The notes: generated by a model from the letters alone, not told the origin. Counted from the first letter of the stretch, positions 2,395-16,958 are shown. The stretch: DNA of 24,000 nucleotides from Candidatus Micrarchaeota archaeon (GCA_040755655.1 JBFMAP010000002.1:1398-25397); one strand, 5' to 3'. Translations and numbers: made by a program.

Positions 2395-3597
2395 CTAGGA
2401 AGCGCCGAATTTTTCCCTAAGGCGTTTTATGACTTCCTCAAACATACGCTCTGGCAGTGTCTTGTATTTTGGTGGGCAGTGGCAGTTGAACTTGTTATCA
2501 CAACGTCCATGCGTCATGTCCTCCAAGAATTTGGCTACCCTTTTCAAGATAAGTTCAAGCGGTTCCAGCCTGATGTTGCCAAGAGGAGTGCTATAGCCAG
2601 GACATGCGGTCACGTTGCCGTTTAGAGTAAGATAGATTCCGCGCGGCGCTTTTTCGTCATATGCTATCTGGTTACAAGGATGTATTCCGGGAAGTGCGGA
2701 TATGCCTTCTTTTTCGACCTGTGAAAGCGTTTGTAAACCATGTTCTATGTTGTATGAGTATATATCGAACCACAGTTTGATTTTCTCCTCGGTCGAGATG
2801 TCGACGAACTTGAGAAACTTATCTGTGAACTGCATGCCGCTAGTCATTAATGCTGCAGTAACAGGGTAGATGTTGCGCTCTCTTGCAAACACGTAGATAT
2901 CGTAGATTTCCTCTGCATTTTCTTTTACAATCGGATTCGAGCAGAGCGCAAGACGTGTTGGCGTTGCGCTGTTAAAGCCGGCCTCGACGAGATTTGAAAG
3001 CGCCATGTTGCGGATTTCGGTGTATCCTGTCGTGCCGCCAACCAGTTTATCCTGTCTCTCTGGATAAAAGGACTGAAATGAGAGCATAACGCTAGTTTTT
3101 AACTCATACAGCGCTTTGCAAAAATCCAAGGCATTCTTAAACCCGAGATATTCAAAATGTTTTCTTGTTTCCTCATCGTTTCCAATCACATGCCCTTTCG
3201 TGAATATCCCGACTCCTATGTTATTCTTGTTCATCTCGCGTAGAAATTCAAAGAATCCCTTGTTTTCAAATGGCTCGCCAGCACCGCATATCTTGACTGT
3301 TTCCAAGCCAAACTTTTTTGCATTGATTATGAATTTGGTCAATTCCTCGGGCGTGAGGTCTCTCATCGGACCCTCATCGAGAACGCTTTCTCTTCGGAAG
3401 CAGGTAGGGCAGTGCAAAGAGCAATTGTTCCCAAAGTCGATATCCATCATAAGAAGTTTCCCTTTGCTTTTCCGGAGTTTTTCCTCGCTGAAAAAGCCCC
3501 AGTTAGGAAACTCATTCGCCATAGAGGTATTTCTGAACATTGCGTCGTTTTTTGGAATCTGCGGGACAATTTTTTGCATAACCACACCACCACGCAT
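2395..3597 (-). CDS. radical SAM protein with a C-terminal SPASM/twitch-like Cys-rich domain
   Basis: Canonical NCSLHCPTCF (CxxxCxxC), a GAGEPF SAM-binding motif, and C-terminal Cys residues (HPCNQ...TACPG...GRCDNKFNCHCPP). The start may instead be the ATG at 3579, which is preceded by GGTGGTG. Confidence 0.75.
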   Translation of the reverse strand: MRGGVVMQKIVPQIPKNDAMFRNTSMANEFPNWGFFSEEKLRKSKGKLLMMDIDFGNNCSLHCPTCFRRESVLDEGPMRDLTPEELTKFIINAKKFGLETVKICGAGEPFENKGFFEFLREMNKNNIGVGIFTKGHVIGNDEETRKHFEYLGFKNALDFCKALYELKTSVMLSFQSFYPERQDKLVGGTTGYTEIRNMALSNLVEAGFNSATPTRLALCSNPIVKENAEEIYDIYVFARERNIYPVTAALMTSGMQFTDKFLKFVDISTEEKIKLWFDIYSYNIEHGLQTLSQVEKEGISALPGIHPCNQIAYDEKAPRGIYLTLNGNVTACPGYSTPLGNIRLEPLELILKRVAKFLEDMTHGRCDNKFNCHCPPKYKTLPERMFEEVIKRLREKFGAS

Positions 3598-3711
3598 AGA
3601 CGCCTAGCAGCACAGCTAGCGTGCGAATTGGGGATATCATTCTGTGGTTATTATGCACTTCAGCGGATATTAAACCTTGCAACGAAAAATGCCAAACATT
3701 TAAAAATATTG

Positions 3712-3729: not shown

Positions 3730-4719
3730 ATGGCAAATAGTCTTGTGGATAGGACAGACATGAAAATCCTCTACCATCTCGACGTCGACGCCCGCCAGCC
3801 TTATTCCATAATCGCAAAGAAGCTTAGGATATCGGATGACGCAGTACAGTACCGCGTGACGAGGATGCAGAAGGAGGGCATCATAAAGGGCTTTTATGCC
3901 GTGATAGACCCGTCGGCGCTCGGATACCTGAGCTGCAGGTTCTTCATCAAATTCCACCTCACGACCCCGAAGATGGAGAAGGAGATTGTCGATTATCTCG
4001 TGAACGACCCGCAGTATTGGTGGGTGGACAGCATAGACGGATTCAGGGACTTGGGCGTTGCCTGCTGGCTGCCCAACACAGTTGAATTTGGGAAAAAGAA
4101 AGAGGAACTGCAGGAAAAATTCCGCGAGAATGCGGATATAGTGCAGGAATCCATCTATTCAACGTTTTACCTCTATTCGAGGGCATATCTCGTTGGCAAG
4201 GATGTTGACGATGCAGAGCCAGTAGTATTATGCAGGGAGAAGAAAACGGACGTGGATGCGCTTGACTGGAGGATACTCGAACTTATTGGAAAAAACGCGC
4301 GCGTCTCAAGCCTGGAAATCGCGAAAAAACTGGGCATAACGCCGCCGACCGCGCTCAGCAGGCTGAAACTCCTCAAACAAAAAAACATAATCAGGAGATA
4401 CAGGCCGATGATTGATTTGGGAAAGCTCGGATATTATTGGTACAAGATAGAGTTCAAACTTAGGGACTACGCCGTAAAGAAAAAAATGCTTGATTTTTTC
4501 GCAAGACATCCGAACATCGTGTATGCGTACGAGGCAATCGGCGGCGCGGATTTGGAGGTCGAACTTGAGGTCGAGTCGTACGAGCATTTCAGGGAGATAC
4601 TGGACAGCATCAAGGAAAAATTCGGGGAGGAAATCGAGGATTACCAGCACCTGCTGTGGTACAAGGAGCATAAAATAACGTACATACCGTATCGACCGAG
4701 AGCCGAACCGCAATCCTAA
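3730..4719 (+). CDS. tandem (duplicated) Lrp/AsnC-family transcriptional regulator
   Basis: There are two HTH_AsnC-like modules: DMKILYHLDVDARQPYSIIAKKLRISDDAVQYRVTRMQKEGIIKGF and LDWRILELIGKNARVSSLEIAKKLGITPPTALSRLKLLKQKNIIRRY. Each is followed by an about 80-aa RAM-like region. Confidence 0.8.
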   Translation: MANSLVDRTDMKILYHLDVDARQPYSIIAKKLRISDDAVQYRVTRMQKEGIIKGFYAVIDPSALGYLSCRFFIKFHLTTPKMEKEIVDYLVNDPQYWWVDSIDGFRDLGVACWLPNTVEFGKKKEELQEKFRENADIVQESIYSTFYLYSRAYLVGKDVDDAEPVVLCREKKTDVDALDWRILELIGKNARVSSLEIAKKLGITPPTALSRLKLLKQKNIIRRYRPMIDLGKLGYYWYKIEFKLRDYAVKKKMLDFFARHPNIVYAYEAIGGADLEVELEVESYEHFREILDSIKEKFGEEIEDYQHLLWYKEHKITYIPYRPRAEPQS

Positions 4720-7406: not shown

Positions 7407-8594
7407 ATGAACGAACACGCATGGAAAATAATTGAAAGTAGGAATTTCTGGCGCAGGGGACCGGAGACAGGGGTGCCTCGGGACGTAACAGAGGAGATAC
7501 TAAAGTACATGAATAGACCGGAGGTTTTATACCTTTACGGTCCAAGGCGGGCAGGCAAAACAACGGTGTGCATGCAGCTCATAAAACATCTTTCAAAAAA
7601 ATACGGGAGGACTTCCTCCGTATACATAAACTTCGAGGAGCCCGCGTTCTCGAGCATGCTGAGCAACGAATTCCTGGAGTGGATAGCGGAAAAATACGCG
7701 TCTGTTTTCTCAAGAAAGCCGAGGTTTGTATTCTTTGATGAAATTCAGAACGTCCCGGCCTGGGAGAAATTTGTCAGAGGCGTCGTGGATAGAAGGGAAT
7801 TTAAAATAATAGTTACCGGCTCCTCTGCAAAATTGCTCAGCTCGGAGTTTTCCACCTCGCTTGGAGGCAGGGGGTTCGGCTTTCGCGTTCTCCCGTTCTC
7901 CTTCATGGAGTTCAAAAAAGCCCTGAAAAAAGCAACTCTTTCGAACTATCTGAAAACCGGGGGTTATCCGGCAGTGGTTCTGGAGAAAGACAGGGAAAAA
8001 CAGGATAGGCAGCTTGAGGAGTATTTCGAGACGGCGATAACAAGGGACATAGCCATAAGGCACGAGGTGAGGGACGTTCCGACGCTGAGGACCCTGGCGG
8101 TATACGTTCTGACAAACTCCGGGAAAATGTTCAGCTACAACAAGCTGCGGGCCCTCACAGGCCTGTCCTTCGATGCGATAAAAACCTATCTCTCATATCT
8201 TGAGGAGGCTTTCGTGGTCTTCCAGGTCCCGTTTTTCTCCTACTCGTTAAAGAAAGCGCTTGAAAAACCAAGGAAATACTACGCTTATGACACGGGCCTG
8301 CAGGGAGTGCTCTCAAAATCTTTCAGCCCTGACCTTGGCAGACGCCTGGAGAACGCTGTCGCGGTTGAACTTGTGAGGAGAAACAAGGAGATCCAGTACT
8401 ACTCAAACAAAACCGAAGTGGATTTTGTCATAAAGGAGGGACTGAACCTGAGCGCGCTGAACGTATGCGCTTCCGAAAAAATTCCAAAAAGAGAAAAAAG
8501 CGGGCTGGAGGCTTTCGCAAGGGAGTTTAAAGTTGAAAACGTTCTCCTGCTTAATGGCGAAAAACGCGTCTCGAAATGGCTGCTGGGGGAATAA
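7407..8594 (+). CDS. AAA+ ATPase of the COG1373 / DUF4143 type
   Basis: Walker A YGPRRAGKTT, Walker B FVFFDEIQ, and an about 395-aa architecture typical of this family. Confidence 0.75.
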   Translation: MNEHAWKIIESRNFWRRGPETGVPRDVTEEILKYMNRPEVLYLYGPRRAGKTTVCMQLIKHLSKKYGRTSSVYINFEEPAFSSMLSNEFLEWIAEKYASVFSRKPRFVFFDEIQNVPAWEKFVRGVVDRREFKIIVTGSSAKLLSSEFSTSLGGRGFGFRVLPFSFMEFKKALKKATLSNYLKTGGYPAVVLEKDREKQDRQLEEYFETAITRDIAIRHEVRDVPTLRTLAVYVLTNSGKMFSYNKLRALTGLSFDAIKTYLSYLEEAFVVFQVPFFSYSLKKALEKPRKYYAYDTGLQGVLSKSFSPDLGRRLENAVAVELVRRNKEIQYYSNKTEVDFVIKEGLNLSALNVCASEKIPKREKSGLEAFAREFKVENVLLLNGEKRVSKWLLGE

Positions 8595-8843
8595 GCATGT
8601 ACACTAGTGGATGAGGAATGAAAAAAAGATTAAACCGGAAGAAAGTGTTTTTTGGGACATCTGCACGAAATTAACCGGACGCGGAAATTGGCTTTAGTAA
8701 CGGCGGGCTCGCAGATCGCGTGAGCTTTCTGCTTACACCCCCGTCCTATCAAAAGGGTCTGCTACCCTCGCCTCATATCGCCTCGTTTTGAGAGTGGCTT
8801 CGTCCTTAGATGCTTTCAGGTCTTATCCATCAGTGCTTTGCCC

Positions 8844-8872
8844 GGCGCGCGCTAAAAAACACGCGACGCGCC
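8844..8872 (-). repeat. GC-hairpin/oligo-U element, copy 1 (29 nt), near the 23S 3' end (about E. coli 2735)
   Basis: RNA sense is GGCGCGTCGCGTGTTTTTTAGCGCGCGCC. It has the same core as the copies at 9769 and 12039. Confidence 0.55.
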
Positions 8873-8998
8873 GTGTGGCTGCCCGGCAGTGCATTTCACA
8901 ACCGGTAGACTAGAGGCACCGAACCCCAGTTCCTCTCGTACTCAGGGGTTCTTACTCTCAGGCGATCAACACTTCTAGGAGATACTACCGAACTGTCT

Positions 8999-9036
8999 TT
9001 GTCGCCCTTCTGACGAAATAAAATTGTCATTAGGGT
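8999..9036 (-). other. 23S insertion, 38 nt, ORF-less (putative mini-intron), about E. coli 2595
   Basis: The conserved accgaactgtct|cgcgacgttctgaaccc (reverse complement of GGGTTCAGAACGTCGCGA|AGACAGTTCGGT) is split. The insert can pair CCCT/AGGG and TGAC/GTCA. Confidence 0.7.
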
Positions 9037-9160
9037 CGCGACGTTCTGAACCCAGCTCGTGTAGGTCTTTAATGGATGAACAACCCAACCATTGGCGGCT
9101 CCTGCACCGCCAGGATGACCTAAGCCGACAGCGATGTACCAAACCGCGGGGTCGATACGT

Positions 9161-9211
9161 ACAACTAACGCTAGTGACGAAACGAAAACCAGTCAACTAG
9201 CGAGAGTTTGG
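9161..9211 (-). other. 23S insertion, about 51 nt, ORF-less, about E. coli 2480
   Basis: There is extra sequence between gtcgatacgt and gtactctcgcccgcgacga, where archaeal 23S normally has only a few nt. It contains ctagtgac/gtcaactag-type pairing. Boundaries are uncertain. Confidence 0.5.
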
Positions 9212-9236
9212 GTACTCTCGCCCGCGACGAGCCTGT

Positions 9237-9292
9237 CTTGGGTCTCGTTAGAAACGCACTGGAAATTCCAGCGCTACGCGTAGCTAACGAGA
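9237..9292 (-). other. 23S insertion, 56 nt, ORF-less, inside GGGGATAA^CAGGCT (about E. coli 2450, PTC core)
   Basis: RNA sense reads CCCCGGGGGTAA|TCTCGTTAG...CTAACGAGACCCAAG|ACAGGCTCG. There is a 9-bp terminal stem TCTCGTTAG/CTAACGAGA. Confidence 0.7.
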
Positions 9293-9435
9293 TTACCCCC
9301 GGGGTAGCTTGTCTGACAGCTTGGACCCTCATTAAAAAGGTGCCAAGGTTCGTTAAGCCCGGCTTTCGCCTCTGGATCCCACGCGTTTAAGGATCCAGTC
9401 AGCCCTGCATTTGTCTTTAACCCTTAACGGCGGAT

Positions 9436-9481
9436 GTCCATACGCCGCTGACCACCCTACTAAAAACTGGTCATCGGCGTC
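9436..9481 (-). other. 23S insertion, 46 nt, ORF-less, about E. coli 2300
   Basis: The hairpin GGCGGGTCAGAA...ATCCGCCG carries 46 extra nt in its loop. These are self-pairing (ACGCCG/CGGCGT, TGACCA/TGGTCA). Confidence 0.5.
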
Positions 9482-9515
9482 TTCTGACCCGCCTAAGCAG
9501 AACATTGGGCGCCCT

Positions 9516-9560
9516 TGTTTCAAGCAGCGGGCGACATTTGAAAATTTGTTTGTCGCACGC
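9516..9560 (-). other. 23S insertion, 45 nt, ORF-less, about E. coli 2270
   Basis: CCCTCGATAAGGAATCG|...|AGGGCGCCC is normally a short closed hairpin. The insert has GCGACA/TGTCGC pairing. Confidence 0.55.
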
Positions 9561-9768
9561 CGATTCCTTATCGAGGGCGTACCGCCCCAGCCAAACTATC
9601 CATCTGCTGCTGTTCCGTAAAGGTGAGGGATATATCAATCGTCGAGCGGTGTTACACTTTCGCCTATCTGCAGCCCGAAAGCTGCAACTTAACGGCTCCC
9701 GCTTACGCTCCGCAACGGCCAACATATCTCAACAACAGACTATAGTAAAGCTCCACGGGGTCTTCACG

Positions 9769-9799
9769 CAGCGCGCGCTGAAAAATACGCGACGCGCTG
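9769..9799 (-). repeat. GC-hairpin/oligo-U element, copy 2 (31 nt), a few nt 5' of the GAAGACCCC block (about E. coli 2055)
   Basis: RNA sense is CAGCGCGTCGCGTATTTTTCAGCGCGCGCTG. It differs from the copy at 12039 by one base. Confidence 0.7.
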
Positions 9800-9946
9800 C
9801 TTCGTTTCCCCCTAGAAGTCCTCCGCATATTCACGGAGTAGTGAGTTCACCAGGTCCCAGATGGGGACAGTGGGAGGCTCGTTATGCCCTTCATGCAAGC
9901 CACCAATTAAGCGGCGAGGTATTACGCTACCTTAAGAGGGTCAGAG

Positions 9947-9983
9947 TATGGGGTTGCGTCTCCAGAAAAAATAGAGACTGCAA
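9947..9983 (-). other. 23S insertion, 37 nt, ORF-less, about E. coli 1905
   Basis: GGGGGTAA|...|CTCTGACCCTCTTAAGGTAGCG. Removing 37 nt restores the usual GGGGGTAACTNTGACCC spacing. The insert has a GTCTC/GAGAC hairpin. Confidence 0.6.
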
Positions 9984-10015
9984 TTACCCCCGCTCTTTGC
10001 CGGCGCTTTGCTCCG

Positions 10016-10130
10016 TTGGAACAGAGTCTCGTCTCGCCCTTTTTCTTTCTTGAAAGGAAAGAAGAATGCAGAGTTTCATTTTCTCTTTTTTGGCACCCTG
10101 CATTTTTTCTCTTTTCCAAAGAGAAAAAAG
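10016..10130 (-). other. 23S insertion or expansion, about 115 nt, low-complexity hairpins, about E. coli 1860
   Basis: This lies between CCGGTACGTCAAACCGCC and GGAGCAAAGCGCCGG, where archaeal 23S has an about 18-nt hairpin. It contains TTTTTTCTCTTT-GGA-AAAGAGAAAAAA and TGCAG...CTGCA stems. Confidence 0.55.
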
Positions 10131-11201
10131 GCGGTTTGACGTACCGGTAGTGAGCAGGCATCGCCCCCTATACTAGGCCTTAAGACTTTGCAGGGAGCTA
10201 AGTTTTTGATAAACAGTCGACCTCCCCTTGTCACTGCGACCTGCAGTTCTTGTAAACCGCAGGCATGGTTTGTCCCGAAGTTAAACCACTAACTTGCCGA
10301 GTTCCCTCACCTGAGTTCTCCTGCCACGCCTTGGCTTTTTAAGCCAGCAGCACCTGTATTAGTTCTAGGTACAATCTCGCGGGATCGAACCGGTTCCCTT
10401 TTCACTGGCTCAAGGAATTAGCTGAACCGCCTTGCGGCGGCCTTCCCGTCTTTAGGCTGTTTCTCCTCATAACGAGTCTCCGCAGCCTTGCGGCGGTTAA
10501 ACGGGATCTCTCCCGCTCGGCCTATCCCCAAGCGTCAGGAATCGGCTTTGTGTCGCCACGTCTACCCGCGGGGCACTGGAATATTAACCAGTTTCCCTTT
10601 TGCATCCGAGTAATTGGCTGGATGCTTAGGATTGGCTTACTCTTGGCTGACGAACGTTGCCAAGAAACCCGTGTGCTATGCGGCGTCCAGGATTCTCGCC
10701 TGGATTTGCTGTTACTAACACCAGGATATGCATTTCTGGTGGGTCCATCGGATCTCAAAACCCGACTTCTACCCCAGCAGAACGCCCTCCTACCAGATGA
10801 GCAGCGCAGCTGCTCCTCCAAGGTCTCGGCACCTGACTTAGCCCCGTACATCTTCGGAGCCCGTACTCTCGACTGGTCCGCTATTACGCGTTGTTTAAAG
10901 GATGGCTGCTTCTAAGCCTACCTTCCAGCTGTTTTGGAATAGAGACTCCTTCTGGCTTCGCACTTAGTCAGATTTTAGGGGCCTTAACCCTGGTCTCGGT
11001 CGTTCCCGTCCCGGCCTGTCAGCTTACCCGACAGAACCCTACTCTCGCCTTCTACGGTGATAATGAATTCGGAGTTTGACAAAACGGCGGACCCTCTCGG
11101 ATCCATTCCGCCAAATCAGTGCTCTACCTCATTATCCACCTCCAGCGAGGTCATCCTGAGGGATGCTTCGGAGGGGACCCGCTATCGCCAAGTTCGATTG
11201 G

Positions 11202-11235
11202 ATTTGACTGGGGAGCGCCTCGAGGCGCTCCCCAT
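11202..11235 (-). other. 23S insertion, 34 nt, ORF-less, about E. coli 812
   Basis: GGGGTGAAAG|...|CCAATCGAAC is split. The insert is the perfect hairpin GGGGAGCGCC-TCGA-GGCGCTCCCC plus short flanks. Confidence 0.6.
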
Positions 11236-12032
11236 CTTTCACCCCTAGGCGTAGGTCACCCGAGCGGATATACCAGCACCGGTTGCGGGCCTCCACCAAT
11301 CGGAAGATCGGCTTCGCCCTGCCCACGTCTAGATCACATTGGCTTCGGGTCTCAGAGAAGTGATTAATCGCACTCGACCGGCGCGCGGCGAATGATAAAA
11401 ACCGCCGAGCGCCGTCTTTCATACGACGCGCCTCACAATCGTTGCGCGCGTTCGCTTTCGCTACGCCTTTCGGCTCACCACTTCAATGAACTCCCTGGCT
11501 CTTGATTCAAGAAGATGGATGGAACCCTGATCCTCGCCCCTCGCTCGGAGGATTGCTCCCCCTCGCTTCGGGGCGCCTCAAATCTTTCAGGCTCCATCAA
11601 CCTGTAACCATTCAGTTTCAGGCTCTTTTCACACCCCTTTCGGGGTCCTTTTCAGCTTTCGCTCGCGCTACTTATGCGCTATCGGTCTCAAGTCTATATT
11701 TAGAGTTGGAGGTTAATCCCCCCGCGTTCGCGCCAGATACCCGACTGACGCTACTCACCGCGCCTAGTTCCTCCCGCGTTTGCCTACGAGGCTATAACTC
11801 TTTGTCGCGAGGCATTTCAGCCCACTTCGGCTCTGCGAAAGGATATATGACGCATCACATCTCCGCGCGAGTTGCCCCGCGGGATTCGAATCGCTCTAAG
11901 CGGCTTTCAGTCGCCCTTACTCACCGCATCCCAATTGGTTTCTTTTCCTGCGGGTACTAAGATGTTTCAATTCCCCGCGTGTTTATCCACTGCTGGACAT
12001 TCGGCAATCTTGGGTTCAAAGGCTGCCTGCGC

Positions 12033-12070
12033 CTGAGCCAGCGCGCGCTGAAAAAGACGCGACGCGCTGT
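12033..12070 (-). repeat. GC-hairpin/oligo-U element, copy 3 (31-nt core 12039-12069 within a 38-nt insertion), about E. coli 75
   Basis: GATAAGCTTGGGGTAG|ACAGCGCGTCGCGTCTTTTTCAGCGCGCGCTGGCTCAG|GCGCAGGCAGCCTTTGA. Removing it restores the usual GGGGnAGGCGCAnGCAGCC. Confidence 0.65.
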
Positions 12071-12323
12071 CTACCCCAAGCTTATCGCAGCTTGCCACGG
12101 CCTTCAATTACCTGAGCCCAGCCATCCCCTGAATGGATTGAACCACGTCCGTGTATTATGCGTGCAGATGTCTCTTCAAACACATTTCTTCCGTCATTGC
12201 GCGCGCCATATAGCGAGCACTGGGACTTCGTTCGAGAAAAACTCTCGAACTGCATTTCAAATCTCATTTACGTGAATAAATGAGCGCGAATTTCGTATGA
12301 ATTTATGGATGGACTCGGCGAGA

Positions 12324-12473
12324 TTCCGAACCGCGGAGGGGGTTCGAACCCCCTCCCCAGTTTCAGGATCCTCCTGACCCTCCCCCACGAGGGCAGAAAA
12401 TTTTCCCGTCCCCAAAAATATTTTCTTTTGGGGCATCGAAAGACCTTTTCTTTTCAAAAGAAAAGGGATTTCG
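12324..12473 (-). other. tRNA-Ala T-loop (about 59/60) intervening sequence, 150 nt
   Basis: It separates GCGAG-TTCAAA from T-CTCGC-CGAGTCC-A. It consists of four consecutive hairpins, including CCTTTTCTTTT/AAAAGAAAAGG and GGAGGGGG-TTCGAA-CCCCCTCC. Confidence 0.7.
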
Positions 12474-12495
12474 TTTGAACTCGCGGCCTCCTCCT

Positions 12496-12519
12496 CTTCT
12501 GCCGGAATTTTATTCCGGA
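12496..12519 (-). other. tRNA-Ala canonical (37/38) intron, 24 nt
   Basis: TCCGGAATAAAATTCCGGCAGAAG lies between G37 and A38 and contains a TCCGGAAT/ATTCCGGC hairpin. Confidence 0.7.
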
Positions 12520-12693
12520 CGCAAAGGAGGCGCTCTACCGCTGAGCTACGAGCCCATAAAATATTTCGGCTTCAAGAACGATTAAACGAACGAACGCTGC
12601 TTGCACTTATGTCGTTTAAATTTCCGATCAGGTTTCATCTCGAAAATTTAAGGAGGTGATCTATCCGCAGGTTCCCCTACGGATACCTTGTTA

Positions 12694-12744
12694 ATCGCCT
12701 TAAAAGCTGCAGCGAGTATATTTCACTGGCAACTTTTAAAGATA
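12694..12744 (-). other. 16S insertion A, 51 nt, ORF-less, about E. coli 1499 (inside the 1492R target)
   Basis: AAGTCGT|...|TAACAAGGTATCCGTAGGGG is split. The insert pairs ttaaaag/cttttaa and tgc/gca. Confidence 0.75.
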
Positions 12745-13027
12745 CGACTTAACCCCCCTCGCAAAGCTCTAGTTCGAAGACGCCAAAAAGCGTCGCCTCA
12801 CTAAAACCTTACTTGGGTGATTTGACGGGCGGTGTGTGCAAGGAGCGGGGACGTATTCACCGCGGGATGTTGACCCGCGATTACTAGGGATTCCAGCTTC
12901 ATGAGGGCGAGTTTCAGCCCTCAATCCGAACTTGGGCTGGGTTTGAGGGATTAGCTCCTCCTTTCGGAGTGGCAACCCGTTGTCCCAACCATTGTAGGCC
13001 ACGTGTGGCCCTGGAGATTTAGGGCAT

Positions 13028-13071
13028 GAGCGGATGTATCGCGCGTACGAATGTCGCGGGATAGGTCCTAT
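13028..13071 (-). other. 16S insertion B, 44 nt, ORF-less, about E. coli 1200-1205
   Basis: GACGGTAGGTCAGTA|...|ATGCCCTAAATC is split. Confidence 0.7.
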
Positions 13072-13180
13072 ACTGACCTACCGTCGCCCCCTCCTTCCTC
13101 CTACTTAACGTAGGCGGTCCCCACAGGGTGCTCTTCTTCCGGAGAAGAAGGTCGCAACTGTGGACGAGGGTCTCGCTCGT

Positions 13181-13753
13181 AACCGGACGATCAGAGCGCA
13201 AAAGCATTAAAGATGTTGCAGCATTTCTTTCGATTCCGCGCGCCTCACGAATTTCGCAATGAAATTCGCAAATTCGCGCGTGTTCATCACCAAAAGTTTT
13301 CCCTTGTTGAAAATGTTGTGAAAACCTAGCCGCTCGAGAAGAAGCGCGTCTTCCTTCGTGCCTCGCGCAATGAAAATTCCCCTTCCCATAATCCCACCGC
13401 GCGCATCGAAAATTCCAGCAAGAAACCGCGCGGAGTATTCATTCTTCCATCTGAAGAAATGAAGCTCCTCGCGCGCGATGTTCTGGAAAAATTTCCTGTA
13501 CGCGGAGTGATGGAAGTAAACCTCCTTCTCCTTCACCTGAATCTCGTTCGGTTTCGCGAGCCCGAGTCGCAGGGATTCCTTTATGAAAATCTCCTGCAGC
13601 GTGCTGCCCGCGGCCACGCCAATCCCCTTCGAGGATGGGCGCGCCTTCCAAATTCCGATGAGATACGCAAGTTCCGGAGTCAGTTTTATTTTCATCTTTT
13701 CACTCTCGAGTTTTTCATCTGGTTTTCATAAGTAAGACTGCGCTCTGAACGTT
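13181..13753 (-). mobile_element. 16S intron C, 573 nt, LAGLIDADG-encoding, about E. coli 1093
   Basis: AAGTCCGGCAA|...|ACGAGCGAGACCC is split. There is a 10-bp perfect pairing of the intron ends (13191-13200 tcagagcgca with 13739-13748 tgcgctctga). Confidence 0.9.
13207..13695 (-). CDS. LAGLIDADG homing endonuclease, compact double-motif (162 aa)
   Basis: Motifs LAYLIGIWKA and ARFLAGIFDARGG. ATG start. The ORF lies entirely inside intron C and in the same sense as the rRNA. Confidence 0.85.
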   Translation of the reverse strand: MKIKLTPELAYLIGIWKARPSSKGIGVAAGSTLQEIFIKESLRLGLAKPNEIQVKEKEVYFHHSAYRKFFQNIAREELHFFRWKNEYSARFLAGIFDARGGIMGRGIFIARGTKEDALLLERLGFHNIFNKGKLLVMNTREFANFIAKFVRRAESKEMLQHL

Positions 13754-13800
13754 TGCCGGACTTAACCGGACAGTTCGCACCACGAGCTGACGATGGCCAT

Positions 13801-13835
13801 TAGTGTTCCAGCAGAGCATACGCTCCGGTGGAATT
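13801..13835 (-). other. 16S insertion D, 35 nt, ORF-less, about E. coli 1052
   Basis: GAGGTGGTGC|...|ATGGCCATCGTCAGCTCGTG is split. Confidence 0.7.
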
Positions 13836-13951
13836 GCACCACCTCTCGGCTCGTCTGGCAAGATCTTTGGTCTGGCCTTCATTCTGCCGTCGCTCCAGGT
13901 AATGTTCCCGGCGTTGAATCCAATTGAACCGCAGCCTCCACCCCTTGTGGT

Positions 13952-14002
13952 ATGGGCGGGGAAAAATCAAAAAGTAATTTCAAAAAATTTGACTTCCCCC
14001 CA
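13952..14002 (-). other. 16S insertion F, 51 nt, ORF-less, about E. coli 932
   Basis: TTGGCGGGGGAGC|...|ACCACAAGGGGTGGAG is split. The insert has G-rich and C-rich ends around an A/T-rich centre. Confidence 0.7.
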
Positions 14003-14015
14003 GCTCCCCCGCCAA

Positions 14016-14047
14016 GTAAGGGGACTGGGTTTTGCAAACCCGTATCC
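14016..14047 (-). other. 16S insertion E, 32 nt, ORF-less, about E. coli 919
   Basis: AACTTAAAGGAAT|...|TTGGCGGGGGAGC is split. The insert has a GGGTTT-TGCA-AACCC hairpin. Confidence 0.7.
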
Positions 14048-14053
14048 ATTCCT

Positions 14054-14653
14054 TTAAGTTTGTTGGAGGAGAGAGTCAACGATTCGAACTTTTTTATGGT
14101 GTTCGAATGGAACAAGTGCAACAAATTTCTTGAAATTTGCTCGCGATGTTATGCAAAAACGCAACGTTCCCGATTTTTTGTCGGCAACGAAGATACGCAG
14201 CGTTTTCACGCCATATTTGTCGAGCCATCTCCGGATAAAATTAAGAGATTCTCGATTCTTCTGGCTGAAACCAATCACGTAGTTTCTTTTACTGGCGTCG
14301 CCCTCGGCATCGAAAAAGCCAGCGATATAATTCGCAATGACTTTATTCCTAGCTCTTCTAATTCTAGTCGGTGTTCTCCATTTTTCTTGTGGAGAAACGA
14401 ACTCGAAATCATTCCTGAAAACGTTGAACGCTTCCATAGAATAAAATCGAGCCCTGAACTGACCAGGTTTATATTCTAATATTGTGACGGTCTTTCCGAA
14501 AGTTTTCTTAACGCGCTTAGCAATCGAATGTACGAGCCATCTGTGGTTTTTTTCGTACCACACGATGGTGTAATTCCTGCTAGCGCGATTGTAGAAAACG
14601 CTTCCGTCACGAAGCGCGCCAACGAGATAAGCTAGGTCTTTGTCGAGGTGCAC
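14054..14653 (-). CDS. LAGLIDADG homing endonuclease, double-motif (about 199 aa from GTG 14653; the frame is open to 14719)
   Basis: Motifs LAYLVGALRDGS and IANYIAGFFDAEGD. There is no usable ATG (the only in-frame Met lies between the two motifs). The first plausible start inside the intron is the GTG at 14651-14653. The stop TAA (14054-14056) lies in the downstream exon sequence CTTAAAGG. Confidence 0.8.
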   Translation of the reverse strand: MHLDKDLAYLVGALRDGSVFYNRASRNYTIVWYEKNHRWLVHSIAKRVKKTFGKTVTILEYKPGQFRARFYSMEAFNVFRNDFEFVSPQEKWRTPTRIRRARNKVIANYIAGFFDAEGDASKRNYVIGFSQKNRESLNFIRRWLDKYGVKTLRIFVADKKSGTLRFCITSRANFKKFVALVPFEHHKKVRIVDSLLQQT

Positions 14654-14678
14654 ATAACTATTAAGACTCTCCCCTTTT
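14061..14678 (-). mobile_element. 16S intron G, about 618 nt, LAGLIDADG-encoding, about E. coli 908
   Basis: GGCCGCAAGGTTGA|...|AACTTAAAGGAAT is split. The intron ends pair 9/10 (14068-14077 with 14665-14674). Confidence 0.9.
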
Positions 14679-14718
14679 TCAACCTTGCGGCCGTACTCCC
14701 CAGGCGGCAGACTTAACA

Positions 14719-14757
14719 CTTGAGCCTGCGCGAGACGAAATTCGCGCGTCTCGTGCA
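14719..14757 (-). other. 16S insertion H, about 39 nt, ORF-less, about E. coli 865 (tentative)
   Basis: There is extra sequence between GTGCCGTAGCGTAGAC and TGTTAAGTCTGCCGCCTGGGG, containing a CGAGACG-CGCGAATTT-CGTCTCG hairpin. This region is naturally variable, so the call is weaker. Confidence 0.45.
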
Positions 14758-14837
14758 GTCTACGCTACGGCACTACAACAGCTCGAAGCTATTGTAACAC
14801 CACAGTCTGCATAATTTACTGCTAGGGCTACTCGGGT

Positions 14838-15551
14838 TTTCAGTATCACTTGAGAAATTTCGCCAATCTTCTTTTTTTCGATTGATGTTTAAGGGAGACG
14901 TGTTTTGCAAACTTCTGCAAATCATCTCTCCCATAGATATAAATCTCGTATTCGGGATTTTTATATCTCGTCCGGGTATAGTTGCTATATCCCACTCCGA
15001 TGCTACTCAAAAATTCGCCAAGAAATTCAAAGACGCTTTTTGAGGTGGTTGAGATGTTGAGTTCGGCTTGTCTTTTTTTGACGCATCCTTCTGCATCAAA
15101 AAGGCCTCCAACATATTCGGCCTGCAAAGACTTACTAAGTTTTTTCATATAAGAAGGTACATGCAAGTTCTGTCGAACTGCGCCTTTCGGCACTTCCATG
15201 ACTTCAACCAGAAACTGATACACCAATACACTCTTTGTATGGCTGTAATACGTGTTTCTGTTTATATCGTGGAACGTGTTTAAATTCACGCCAAAGACAG
15301 ACTTGAAAGCTCTTCTTATTGATTTATGGAACTCTCTGCTCTGCTCGGTGAAGAGTATTCTTCCGCCAGACATATTTCCGTCGCCGTGCAAAATGCCGAG
15401 TAGTCTGCACAGCTCAGGCGTAACGCTGGTTGGAAGATGAACCTTCAAAAGAGGCTTTTTTCGCCCTTTTTTCATAAGGTTTCTTACCCGGTGCTCTAAT
15501 CTCATGAAGAGATTTAGTCGAAAGTATTTATTAGCGTTTCTCAAGTGCGAT
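14838..15551 (-). mobile_element. 16S intron I, 714 nt, LAGLIDADG-encoding, about E. coli 794 (inside the 806R target)
   Basis: GGATTAGAT|...|ACCCGAGTAGCCCTAGC is split. There is an 11-bp perfect terminal stem (14847-14857 cacttgagaaa with 15537-15547 tttctcaagtg). Confidence 0.9.
14846..15505 (-). CDS. LAGLIDADG homing endonuclease, double-motif (219 aa from ATG 15505; 232 aa if the TTG at 15544 is used)
   Basis: Motifs LCRLLGILHGDGN and QAEYVGGLFDAEGC. Same sense as the rRNA. Confidence 0.85.
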   Translation of the reverse strand: MRLEHRVRNLMKKGRKKPLLKVHLPTSVTPELCRLLGILHGDGNMSGGRILFTEQSREFHKSIRRAFKSVFGVNLNTFHDINRNTYYSHTKSVLVYQFLVEVMEVPKGAVRQNLHVPSYMKKLSKSLQAEYVGGLFDAEGCVKKRQAELNISTTSKSVFEFLGEFLSSIGVGYSNYTRTRYKNPEYEIYIYGRDDLQKFAKHVSLKHQSKKRRLAKFLK

Positions 15552-15562
15552 ATCTAATCCGA

Positions 15563-15606
15563 TTTGAACTCGTTGGAGAAGACATTCAATTCTTCAACTC
15601 CGCCGA
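15563..15606 (-). other. 16S insertion K, about 44 nt, ORF-less, about E. coli 781
   Basis: GCTAGGAGAACGAA|...|TCGGATTAGAT is split. The boundary is ambiguous by 4 nt because of a TCGG repeat. The insert has an internal GTTGAAGA/TCTTCTCCAAC hairpin. Confidence 0.65.
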
Positions 15607-15660
15607 TTCGTTCTCCTAGCCTTCGTCCCTCACTGTCAGACGTGTTTTGGTCAAGCGCCT

Positions 15661-15690
15661 TGACGCTGCGCGCGCCCGAGCGCGCGCAGA
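15661..15690 (-). other. 16S insertion J, 30 nt, ORF-less, about E. coli 727
   Basis: CCAGTGGCGAA|...|GGCGCTTGACC is split. The insert is a CTGCGCGCGC-TCGG-GCGCGCGCAG hairpin. Confidence 0.7.
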
Positions 15691-15877
15691 TTCGCCACTG
15701 GAAGTCCTTATAGGATTACAGGATTTTACCCCTACCCCATAAGTACTCTTGACCTCCCCCACTCTCAAGCCCGCCAGTATTTCCTGCACGCCTTCAGGTT
15801 GAGCCTGAAGATTTCACAGGAAACTTAACGGGCCAGCTACGGACTCTTTAGGCCCAATATTCGTGGACACCACTTGG

Positions 15878-15920
<43 letters not shown>

Positions 15921-16112
15921 CCTTATTCTACAAGCGTCTTAAGCTTGTAAAAAGATGCTCGCGTGGAGCATCACTCAGAGTCCCCCTGTCACGCTTTCGC
16001 GCATTGCAGAGGTTTCGCGCCTGCTGCATCCCGTAGGACTAGAACCCTTGTCTCAGTGTTCTTCTCGGGGCTCCAACTCCCATTGCCCCCACTGATTATC
16101 GGCTTGGTGGGC

Positions 16113-16328
16113 TTGCACTGCGAGACCAAAAAACAAAAATCAAAACAAACACCGCAAACTCGAAACTCGAACCCAACAAACAAAAACAAAAAATCACGCG
16201 CTCGCCAACTCGGGTTGGCTCGCGTCATTCGGCGCGCGCGCCTCGAGGCGCGTCTTTTGTTTTGTTGTTGGTGTTGTTGTCGTTGTTTGTGGTGTCGTTG
16301 AGGTTGGTGATTCATTTTGGTCGCGCAT
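16113..16328 (-). other. 16S insertion L, 216 nt, ORF-less long imperfect hairpin, about E. coli 265
   Basis: GGTAGTTGGTGGGGCAACG|...|GCCCACCAAGCCGATAATCAG is split. One arm is CA-rich and the other GT-rich, and the ends pair (accaaaa/ttttggt, gcgagacc/ggtcgcgc). Confidence 0.75.
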
Positions 16329-16958
16329 CGTTGCCCCACCAACTACCTAATCAGGCGCAGTCTTATCCCATGGCAGACCCGGCTGCATTTCACCGGGCTG
16401 TTTAAATCAGGAAGCGTTCCAGCATCCCTGGTCTATCGGGTGTTAGCCTCAGTTTCCCGAGGGTATCCCCGTCCGCGGGGTAAATTGACTACGTGCTACT
16501 GAGCCGTGTGCCGCCCTTCGAAGCTCGAAGAGCAGACTTGCATGGCTTAATCGGACTCTGATAGCAGTGCCCTCCAGCAGGATCAACTGGAGTTTGCACA
16601 CTATGTGCATTCCGCAAGCTGTAAGGCGGATTCGCACTCACATACGTCGTTCCTTGTTTGGTTCTTGAAGCCTGAAGTCTAATCCAAAAGAGCTTGGATT
16701 ACCATTTTTCCTAGAACGCGTTCTTTGAGGAGCGCGTTCGATTATGTACGCTGCAGTGGAAGTGAAAATTTCATCGCACGAAAACTCAGAATTCGCGCTC
16801 TTTACCGCCGGAAACTGCAGCGAGTTTTCGGTAGCATATCTTTTATAGAGCAAGGTTTAAATACGTTTTCCTCTCCCTCGGTGGCGCTCAAAAAACACGA
16901 AGAGTACAATTATATCGCGCAAACTGTATTTTGGTAAAATTATTGCAAAATCTAATTA

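Follow-up and report, generated by a model that had tools for sequence, protein, structure and literature searches.

Near-identical hairpins of probable 38-nucleotide introns at three sites of one 23S rRNA gene: a likely case of bulge-helix-bulge intron multiplication in a Micrarchaeota rRNA operon

The subject of this study is a 24,000-nucleotide (nt) stretch of DNA from a Candidatus Micrarchaeota archaeon (GCA_040755655.1, JBFMAP010000002.1:1398-25397; hereafter the window), in which the gene for 23S or large subunit (LSU) ribosomal RNA (rRNA) contains three copies of a short GC-rich hairpin with a U-rich loop. It is likely, in our assessment, that these repeats are 38-nt, protein-free introns of the bulge-helix-bulge (BHB) type in the 23S gene of this DPANN archaeon, and that they were multiplied within the operon from one ancestral intron. 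The features that carry this interpretation, namely the BHB register, the exact exon-exon junctions, the empty sites in a sister locus and the membership of a sequence family, were all established in silico. An earlier reading of the same sequence (the original prediction) had taken the hairpins for a tiny protein-free element, possibly a mobile mini-intron, that had spread recently within a single rRNA gene, and this view is supported by the BHB context of the copies, by the empty sites and by the lack of equivalent helices in relatives.

The three sequences quoted in that prediction lie on the minus strand exactly as quoted, at 12039-12069, 9769-9799 and 8844-8872, and the Rfam LSU alignment bears out their placement at unrelated positions. 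Copy 1 occupies the loop of a domain I hairpin (model positions 88-94, with 45 nt as against 7 in the consensus), copy 2 the GAAGAC core of domain V, and copy 3 a site in domain VI immediately upstream of GAUAAG...CUGAAAGCAUCUAAG. The hairpins of copies 1 and 2 do differ at a single one of 31 nt, as had been claimed, and that of copy 3 differs from either at 4/31, two of these differences being a compensatory change from A-U to G-C in the outer stem that preserves the stem. The 27-nt core GCGCGTCGCGTNTTTTTNAGCGCGCGC occurs three times in the window, against 0.00 expected from 100 dinucleotide-preserving shuffles. The length of the element, given originally as 29-31 nt, had to be revised, as comparison with relatives revealed an inserted unit of 38 nt at each site, composed of 1 nt, the hairpin and 6 nt. 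One of the operons used in this comparison, L005, is a compact, insertion-free and distant archaeal operon that was reached via a spurious antisense open reading frame (ORF) across copy 2, and serves as a reference, not as a sister. The three units, with their scores against a covariance model built from them (57-59 bits), are as follows, ^ marking here and below the position of a junction:

12033-12070, minus strand: copy 1, predicted 38-nt BHB intron in the LSU domain I hairpin (57.3 bits)
9763-9800, minus strand: copy 2, predicted 38-nt BHB intron splitting ...AACGAA^GACCCCGUGG (58.0 bits; a 38-nt insertion relative to L005)
8837-8874, minus strand: copy 3, predicted 38-nt BHB intron in LSU domain VI (58.8 bits)

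As RNA, copy 1 reads A CAGCGCG U CGC GUCUUUUUCA GCG CGCGCUG GCUCAG. The seven intron nt outside the hairpin, that is the first nt and the 6-nt tail, differ among the three copies; the tails (GCUCAG, CGUGAA and GGCAAA in copies 1, 2 and 3) differ at 4-5 of 6 positions, as against 1/31 in the hairpins. No further copy of the motif was found in the 24-kb window, including its 15.9 kb of non-rRNA sequence, and exact scans with a degenerate 27-mer gave no match in collections of genomes, metagenomes and viral contigs, which do not cover the source genome; neither result gives any sign of the generic genome-wide repeat that the original prediction had considered as an alternative. An assembly artefact was rejected, the 31-nt repeats being shorter than assembly k-mers and each copy being embedded in the correct conserved exon sequence.

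In the canonical hBHBh' register, typified by the transfer RNA (tRNA) intron at 37/38, the first cut falls after a position a and the second after a position b. The exon-1 strand of the central helix H, of 4 base pairs (bp), occupies a-5 to a-2, and the first bulge comprises a-1, a and a+1; helix h' begins at a+2, which pairs with b-6; the tail strand of the central helix extends from b-5 to b-2, and the second bulge comprises b-1, b and b+1. This geometry predicts the very asymmetry, 1 nt on one side of the hairpin and 6 nt on the other, that is seen at each copy. Comparison of the flanks revealed a BHB context at all three sites, with cuts that restore the conserved mature sequence. In copy 1 the central helix GGGU/GCUC is paired at 4/4 positions (two as G.U) between the bulges AGA/AGG. 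Copy 2 has AACG/CGUG (3/4), bulges AAG/AAG and, beyond one A.A mismatch, an outer helix GGGG/CCCC, and copy 3 has AGCC/GGCA (3/4) and bulges ACA/AAG. Eight contiguous h' pairs were counted in each, the h' helices as a whole amounting to about 7-8 bp plus a 3-bp extension. Minimum free energy folding of the 71-nt contexts gave weak z-scores (-1.1 for copy 1 and -0.6 for copy 3), and the thermodynamic fold alone does not reveal the BHB.

The informative test was the register at boundaries fixed independently by homology, of which the operon offers 22. An automated pass recovered the BHB register at 18 of the 22 sites, and inspection added a 43-nt and a 108-nt LSU insertion. When 3/4 or more pairs were required in the central helix and 8 bp or more in h', 8/22 insertions qualified against a null of 0.009 per site, and when an h' of 4 bp or more was the sole requirement, 17/22 did so against a null of 0.15. 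Over the 20 predicted introns the central helix is paired at 70 of 80 positions, a figure that is somewhat inflated by the choice of each register among a few alignment-equivalent slides (the verbatim junction matches described below are unaffected by this); the corresponding controls were 19-32 for slid registers and 34.3 +/- 4.1, with a maximum of 48, for mismatched H1/H2 partners. The null for a lenient form of the site test (h' at least 3, slide +/-8) amounts to 0.33 per site, and only the stringent versions and the junction matches were used.

Relatives of the operon were reached through a neighbouring gene for phosphoenolpyruvate (PEP) carboxylase. The final 143 nt of locus L001, which carries an 89%-identical PEP carboxylase, match the LSU 3' end of the window at 100% identity, and an anchor from this stretch retrieved three loci, L018, L019 and L020. 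The last is a DNA-derived Ca. Micrarchaeota metagenome-assembled genome with a complete LSU gene; exon identity to the window is about 97.6-99.3%. It is exactly empty at all three copy positions, a state for which the original prediction had suggested that sister lineages be checked. It is likewise empty at the site of the 43-nt insertion and at those of introns of 108, 37 and 46 nt, which makes 7 of the 12 LSU sites; it keeps the introns of 33, 45 and 53 nt, with 3, 1 and 0 differences from the window, and at the sites of the 57-nt and 38-nt introns of the window it has ORF-bearing introns of 671 and 723 nt. The predicted junction of copy 1, AGCTTGGGGTAG^GCGCAGGCAGCC, is found verbatim in L018 and L020, that of copy 2, GGGGGAAACGAA^GACCCCGTGGAG, in L020, and that of copy 3, CCGGGCAGCCAC^GCACTGATGGAT, in L018, L019 and L020. 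An alternative removal at copy 1 would yield GGGGUAGACGCAGG, and is disfavoured by the verbatim junction in the relatives. The predicted exon-exon 24-mers also agree in length with the Rfam archaeal consensus, and neither this consensus nor L005 nor L018-L020 has at the copy sites the equivalent helices that ordinary lineage-specific structure, as weighed in the original prediction, would have called for.

The other two loci, both contigs from the Joint Genome Institute (L018, Ga0187791_1491359; L019, Ga0187790_1022596), are circularly permuted, with the LSU 3' end joined directly to the 5' end, and look like assembled circular pre-23S rRNA. Circular pre-23S rRNA is a known archaeal intermediate (for context, bioRxiv 10.64898/2026.03.23.713588). 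The 23S processing stem of the window itself has a BHB register, with H UAAU/GUUA (4/4), h' of 9 bp, bulges ACA/AUU and a 12-bp outer helix:

12153-12180, minus strand: 5' strand of the 23S processing stem, with a predicted BHB cut after window position 12153
8640-8670, minus strand: 3' strand of the 23S processing stem, with a predicted BHB cut after window position 8670

The product of ligation at these cuts, ...CGUCCGGUUAAU^ACGGACGUGG..., is exactly the junction of L018, at ~400-430 of that contig. This contig is collinear with the in-silico spliced pre-23S of the window (2909 nt, against 3483 nt unspliced), at 95.6% identity over 2428 nt and 99.3% over 422 nt; it lacks all 12 LSU insertions and runs without interruption, its exon-exon joins being exact, through 10 of the 12 sites. 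Its simplest reading would be a circular, fully spliced pre-23S rRNA.

Among 17 mini-introns of the operon only the three copies are clearly related to one another, with local alignment scores of 44-57 against a shuffled maximum of 21. The next best end-to-end matches of the covariance model, however, fall on two segments that had been predicted independently as BHB introns, and nothing comparable was found in a covariance search of 16 sources totalling 146 kb:

11373-11415, minus strand: probable diverged member, predicted 43-nt BHB intron in an LSU hairpin loop (model position ~766; 18.4 bits, E about 0.03)
15660-15690, minus strand: probable diverged member, predicted 31-nt BHB intron in the small subunit (SSU) rRNA (20.9 bits, E about 0.007)

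The 43-nt LSU intron is made up of a GC outer stem, a U/C internal mismatch, a GC inner stem and a U-rich loop, and has ACGGCGC...GCGCGCCGG in common with copy 3; its central helix is UGAA/GUCG (3/4), its h' has 6 bp, and its junction is verbatim in L018 and L020. The SSU intron reads U CUGCGCGCGC UCGG GCGCGCGCAG CGUCAA, with H GGCG/CGUC (4/4) and h' of 10 bp, and its site is empty in L005, L006, L013, L015 and L016. Its tail CGUCAA resembles the tail CGUGAA of copy 2, and both introns follow ...CGAA. These two introns are probably older, diverged members of the family. All members lie in LSU or SSU rRNA in exact BHB register, and the tRNA-Pro gene of the window has no intron. At ~420-500 in L009-L012, members of another clade, we also observed an unrelated AT-rich insertion of ~40 nt, AAATTCGGACTCGAATTTTTTACGAATCCGATTTGGTAAA, 6-7 nt upstream of the position of the SSU intron, which points to a possible local hot spot for small insertions.

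Taken together, we would envisage the following course of events. In the pre-rRNA, the four exon-1 nt before the first 3-nt bulge would pair with the 4-nt tail that follows the GC hairpin, the second 3-nt bulge lying opposite; the tRNA-splicing endonuclease, of the epsilon2 type in Micrarchaeota, would cut after the second nt of each bulge; and RtcB ligase would join the exons as GGGGUAG^GCGCAGG, AACGAA^GACCCC and GCAGCCAC^GCACUG in the mature 23S, thereby restoring the conserved rRNA sequence. The hairpin itself, capped by its U-rich loop, would represent the intron-internal helix h' and would probably have no ribosomal role. The three copies, probably together with the two older diverged ones, would descend from one intron, which would have multiplied at about the time of the split from the empty-site sister lineage, or after it. 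Mobility is suggested by the pattern of distribution. We infer gain in the window lineage rather than loss in the sister because the difference between copies 1 and 2 (1/31) is about that between the window and L020 (about 2.4% in exons and 0-9% in shared introns), and because all four LSU members of the family are absent from L020. The spread thus looks recent.

The contrast between a conserved hairpin and seven differing intron nt around it bears on the route of spread, since either the hairpin alone was copied, or whole introns land where the tail can pair and then adapt. Hairpin-only copying, or insertion where the exon end pairs with the tail, would accordingly be the better-fitting routes. 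A further proposal, which we put forward as a speculation with rather more against it than for it, is that the GC hairpin is a self-propagating, protein-free intron module that spreads without a homing endonuclease, even into the peptidyl-transferase core. Such a module might travel, for example, by a reversal of the endonuclease and ligase reaction on RNA, the product of which then became fixed in DNA, or by template switching confined to the hairpin, and a splicing endonuclease of broad specificity would render any insertion harmless if its 4-nt tail pairs with the upstream exon.

Several points weigh against the interpretation of the copies as spliced and mobile introns. The outer exon-exon helix h is weak, with 2 bp in copy 1, 0+4 bp in copy 2 and 0 bp in copy 3, and the arrangement of two bulges and a 4-bp helix is present in copies 2 and 3 in relaxed form (H 3/4). 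Given the weakness of h, the three copies are to all appearances relaxed, HBh'-like motifs, which would require an endonuclease of broad specificity; the epsilon2 endonuclease of ARMAN-2 does cleave both strict and relaxed BHB motifs in vitro (PMC3239211). The 24-kb window contains no gene for a splicing endonuclease or ligase. Generic scans for relaxed BHB motifs returned 10,349 and then 618 matches, against about 349 in shuffles; structured rRNA offers BHB-like geometry of this relaxed kind in many places, and the generic scan, which does not discriminate, was excluded from the evidence. Splicing of these introns in vivo is a prediction, and the support that L018 lends to it is indirect, as that contig comes from a third, related organism. 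L020 is the only DNA-derived close relative that was compared, which leaves gain and loss indistinguishable by that comparison. Finally, the divergence of tails as against hairpins argues against simple transposition of whole introns followed by drift, and would fit gene conversion of the hairpin only.

The last point leads to what we regard as an unlikely alternative, in which old and unrelated BHB introns with adapted tails already stood at the three sites, their hairpins were homogenised by short-tract gene conversion or template switching, and L020 lost its introns precisely. Near-identical hairpins combined with a site-specific first nt and site-specific 6-nt tails are what it would produce; the lack of 7/12 LSU introns in L020 indicates that gains or losses are frequent in the clade, and precise loss is plausible through recombination with intron-less alleles. 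It would, on the other hand, demand that L020 lost an intron precisely on three or four occasions, in each case at a site of the family, and that conversion tracts of ~31 nt ended exactly at the base of the stem; and no relative has a different intron at any of the three sites. An origin as a palindromic DNA element, comparable to MITEs (miniature inverted-repeat transposable elements) or GC clusters, which inserts genome-wide and shows its BHB fit incidentally in a window rich in rRNA, appears highly improbable. The hairpin is indeed a nearly palindromic, GC-rich sequence, comparable in size to known mobile palindromes, its stem arms could pass as terminal inverted repeats, and our view is limited to 24 kb of the source genome. 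Yet there are zero copies in the 15.9 kb of non-rRNA window sequence, exact scans of the collections of genomes, metagenomes and viral contigs yielded none either, and five members stand in exact BHB register where about 6% per site would be expected at random (estimated as 3/8 for the register x about 0.15 for H of at least 3/4). The MITE-like option of the original prediction also fails for want of a target-site duplication, the 7-nt flanks of the hairpins matching at 3-4/7 with no consistent length.

If the BHB cuts were made and the exons were left unjoined, the result would be a fragmented 23S rRNA of the kind known from bacterial intervening sequences. BHB cleavage alone would suffice to free the hairpins, and fragmented and permuted rRNAs do exist in nature, a permuted 23S rRNA in Thermococcus 50S particles being reported in a 2026 preprint (bioRxiv 10.64898/2026.03.23.713588). 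The 12 LSU sites would however yield 13 pieces, with breaks that include the peptidyl-transferase core, L018 is continuous over 10/12 of them, and ligation of the RtcB type is the established fate of BHB cleavage products (PMC4496867), all of which makes this outcome improbable in the extreme. An intervening sequence of the bacterial type, excised by RNase III, was rejected separately, copy 2 lying within a conserved single strand and the joins in L018 being continuous. Lowest of all we would place the retention of the hairpins as lineage-specific helices, or expansion segments, in the mature ribosome, to which we attach almost no weight. Copies 1 (the tip of a domain I hairpin) and 3 (domain VI) are peripheral, where expansions are tolerated, and some DPANN and Asgard archaeal rRNAs are generally known to carry expansions. 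The insertions are nevertheless not simple extensions of helices, since each shows the 1+6-nt asymmetry of a BHB and has a tail able to pair with exon 1; all three are missing from the closest relative although its exons are near-identical, and the RNA-like contig L018 is free of insertions at all 12 sites. Copy 2 splits AACGAA^GACCCC, a conserved single strand of the domain V core and not the tip of a helix; we take the E. coli sequence GGAAAGACCCC to be 2056-2066, so that the junction would fall within GAAGAC between A2060 and G2061. This strand lines the peptidyl-transferase centre and the entrance of the tunnel, and a working ribosome could not credibly accommodate a stable 31-nt hairpin at this place. 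Interrupting GAA^GAC as it does, copy 2 therefore cannot be a retained helix, and the 37-nt and 38-nt introns in the loops of helices 69 and 93 (H69 and H93) argue likewise against retained helices across the operon. The preferred reading thus remains that of BHB introns that are removed from the precursor and have multiplied within the operon.

The copies are embedded in an operon with an extraordinary load of insertions, and their family is only one among many predicted BHB introns there. The two rRNA genes, the two large ORFs in the SSU gene and the insertions other than those already listed are:

8676-12151, minus strand: archaeal 23S (LSU) rRNA, 3476 nt against a 2987-position model (Rfam RF02540, 2133 bits)
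12651-16593, minus strand: SSU rRNA, 3943 nt against a 1478-position model (Rfam), with 10 insertions
11203-11235, minus strand: predicted LSU BHB mini-intron, 33 nt, also in L020 with 3 differences
10028-10135, minus strand: predicted LSU BHB intron, 108 nt, AT-rich, at the tip of the domain IV hairpin that immediately precedes H69, not present in L018 or L020
9948-9984, minus strand: predicted LSU BHB mini-intron, 37 nt, H69 loop, H GGGG/CCCC 4/4, absent in L020
9519-9563, minus strand: predicted LSU BHB mini-intron, 45 nt, also in L020 with 1 difference
9436-9481, minus strand: predicted LSU BHB mini-intron, 46 nt, absent in L020
9237-9293, minus strand: predicted LSU intron, 57 nt, H89a, at GGGGGUA^ACAGG (about E. 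coli 2449), apparent relic of the 671-nt intron of L020
9157-9209, minus strand: predicted LSU BHB mini-intron, 53 nt, H89, identical in L020
8999-9036, minus strand: predicted LSU intron, 38 nt, H93 loop, apparent relic of the 723-nt intron of L020
16113-16328, 15660-15690, 14016-14048, 13952-14002, 13800-13834, 13181-13753, 13026-13069 and 12692-12742, minus strand: the 8 of 10 SSU insertions in BHB register
14846-15544, minus strand: LAGLIDADG homing-endonuclease ORF, 232 amino acids (aa), in an SSU insertion (Pfam PF14528, E = 3e-17)
14054-14719, minus strand: second LAGLIDADG ORF, 221 aa, in the SSU gene (Pfam PF14528, E = 1e-10)

The inventory rests on a global alignment to L005, in which insertions of at least 10 nt numbered 10 in the LSU gene (33, 108, 37, 38 for copy 2, 45, 46, 57, 53, 38, and 38 nt for copy 3) and 10 in the SSU gene (216, 31, 793, 618, 33, 51, 35, 573, 44 and 51 nt). 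The Rfam alignments add copy 1 (38 nt) and the 43-nt insertion, so that 12 LSU insertions of 33-108 nt stand in BHB register. The 108-nt intron has H CGUC/GACG (4/4), bulges AAA/AGA and a junction that is verbatim in L018; we take its hairpin to be H68. The 57-nt and 38-nt introns at H89a and H93 have both termini identical to or in common with the large introns of L020 (671 nt, 2997-3667, with a 210-aa ORF, and 723 nt, 3868-4590, with a 235-aa ORF), and to judge from these termini they are relics, by internal deletion, of ORF-bearing homing-endonuclease introns. Such an origin cannot apply to one hairpin at three unrelated sites. As two LAGLIDADG ORFs lie within the SSU gene, the operon certainly carries introns; the SSU insertions that bear them, of 618 nt (14062-14679) and 793 nt (14718-15510), showed no simple BHB at the boundaries set by the aligner. 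Insertions homologous to this LAGLIDADG-bearing type, of 513-756 nt, were observed in the SSU genes of all relatives examined. The 573-nt insertion at 13181-13753 has a BHB register (CCGG/CCGG, 4/4) and a 162-aa ORF on the minus strand (13207-13695) without a Pfam match, which may encode a degenerate or novel intron protein.

Two other intron classes were considered for the copies and rejected. A mobile intron with a homing endonuclease is at odds with the lack of an ORF in 38 nt; no LSU insertion exceeds 108 nt, and the LAGLIDADG ORFs are in the SSU gene, >2 kb away. For a group I intron 38 nt is far too short, and no match to Intron_gpI (RF00028) at the gathering threshold was found anywhere in the window. 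In the rRNA genes of Micrarchaeota, BHB and group I introns are known to occur side by side (PMC6125680). Many unrelated mini-introns of the operon have 4-6 consecutive U in their loops, for instance those at 11373-11415, 9948-9984, 9436-9481 and 13952-14002, so that such runs are not specific to the family, and the idea that the oligo-U run signals archaeal termination or binds Lsm was discarded on this ground; a signature of deletion relics, a protein-binding site or an effect of composition are possible causes.

The neighbourhood of the operon agrees with its assignment. The archaeal-type PEP carboxylase beside it has its best named relatives, at 58-63% identity, in Ca. Burarchaeum, Anstonellaceae and Micrarchaeia, one metagenomic protein being 89% identical; it would place the window in the Micrarchaeota, as does the origin of the sister locus L020, and this lineage fits the presence of BHB introns. 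Between the acetyltransferase and NUDIX genes and the LSU 3' end lies a gene for an AAA_14/DUF4143 ATPase (7407-8594), which is absent from the syntenic locus L001, where the LSU end follows ~110 nt after the acetyltransferase gene; it looks like a lineage-specific insertion adjoining the rRNA operon. The 16S-23S spacer contains, on the minus strand at ~12300-12555, a disrupted tRNA-Ala(UGC) gene with a ~24-nt insertion after position 37, whose 3' half (CUCGC CGAGUCC A) lies ~175 nt past the T-loop with another T-arm-like element, GGGGGUUCGAACCCCC, in between; it was missed by ARAGORN and scored 29.5 bits with Rfam. Through homologues of the LAGLIDADG protein encoded in the SSU gene, 12 loci with SSU genes were reached, none of them with a full-length LSU gene, the two genes being unlinked there, although L015 has an LSU 5' fragment of ~750 nt upstream of its SSU gene. 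In L006, L009 and L013, which share the SSU LAGLIDADG intron, protein-coding genes follow the SSU gene, and the rRNA genes, which are linked in the window and in L020, are unlinked.

Short hairpin introns in rRNA genes and transposition of tRNA introns are both already known, and their recurrence within one rRNA operon is a new variant. The closest parallels are threefold: 1) The short (<50 nt) hairpin BHB introns in the 16S genes of Thermoproteales and Desulfurococcales (Jay & Inskeep 2015, PMC4496867), which like the present ones are devoid of ORFs, combine a hairpin with a BHB core in an rRNA gene, are removed by the endonuclease and RtcB (as is predicted here), and coexist with LAGLIDADG introns and their remnants, represented in the window by the relics at H89a and H93. 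The present host is a mesophile-like DPANN micrarchaeote and not a crenarchaeote, its 23S as well as its 16S gene is affected, the density is far higher (12 plus at least 8 per operon), and a single intron sequence is found at three to five sites that are not homologous. For the crenarchaeal introns no mobility has been described other than co-conversion with an adjacent intron that encodes a homing endonuclease (PMC4496867), a process that cannot explain copies at sites 0.9-2.3 kb apart. 2) The tRNA genes of Thermoproteales, for which near-identical BHB introns at different positions, of unknown mechanism, are reported (Fujishima 2010, via PMC4090602). The two cases share similar BHB introns at non-orthologous sites, an implied gain after speciation and an endonuclease that accepts relaxed BHB motifs; they differ in that the tRNA genes are scattered over the genome while our copies lie in one rRNA operon with a sister that has empty sites, and in that here only the hairpin is conserved and the tails are site-specific. 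3) The disrupted tRNA genes of Ca. Micrarchaeum (ARMAN-2), in the same phylum, whose introns lie at many non-canonical positions and whose BHB motifs are of both the strict and the relaxed kind (PMC3239211); that work concerns tRNA and does not describe families of rRNA mini-introns. Further removed are the LAGLIDADG introns in the rRNA genes of archaea including Micrarchaeota (PMC6125680), which are found in these genes too and in part at identical sites, such as the H93 loop near LSU 2593, and are the apparent source, by internal deletion, of two window mini-introns. The three copies differ from them in being ORF-less, 38 nt long and at three different sites, for which site-specific homing cannot account. 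A literature search with incomplete access yielded neither a near-identical family of ORF-less introns at several non-homologous sites of one rRNA operon nor an operon with about 20 BHB introns.

How archaeal BHB introns are gained without homing endonucleases is an unresolved question, the 'transposition' of Thermoproteales tRNA introns being without a known mechanism (PMC4090602). Three near-identical copies, two older ones and an empty-site sister with near-identical exons provide the material to reconstruct the insertions, separating intron-derived from target-derived nt; and if the hairpin should prove to be a self-propagating module, the window and L020 would form a natural before-and-after pair for the gain of BHB introns, the mechanism of which has been open since 2010. 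On the practical side, insertions of this kind disrupt rRNA primers, rRNA gene callers and assemblies. For the organism itself, the operon indicates that about a dozen introns can be accommodated in a single rRNA gene, including one in the catalytic core between 2060 and 2061, and such a load implies a heavy reliance of ribosome biogenesis on the tRNA-splicing machinery in a DPANN archaeon with a reduced genome.

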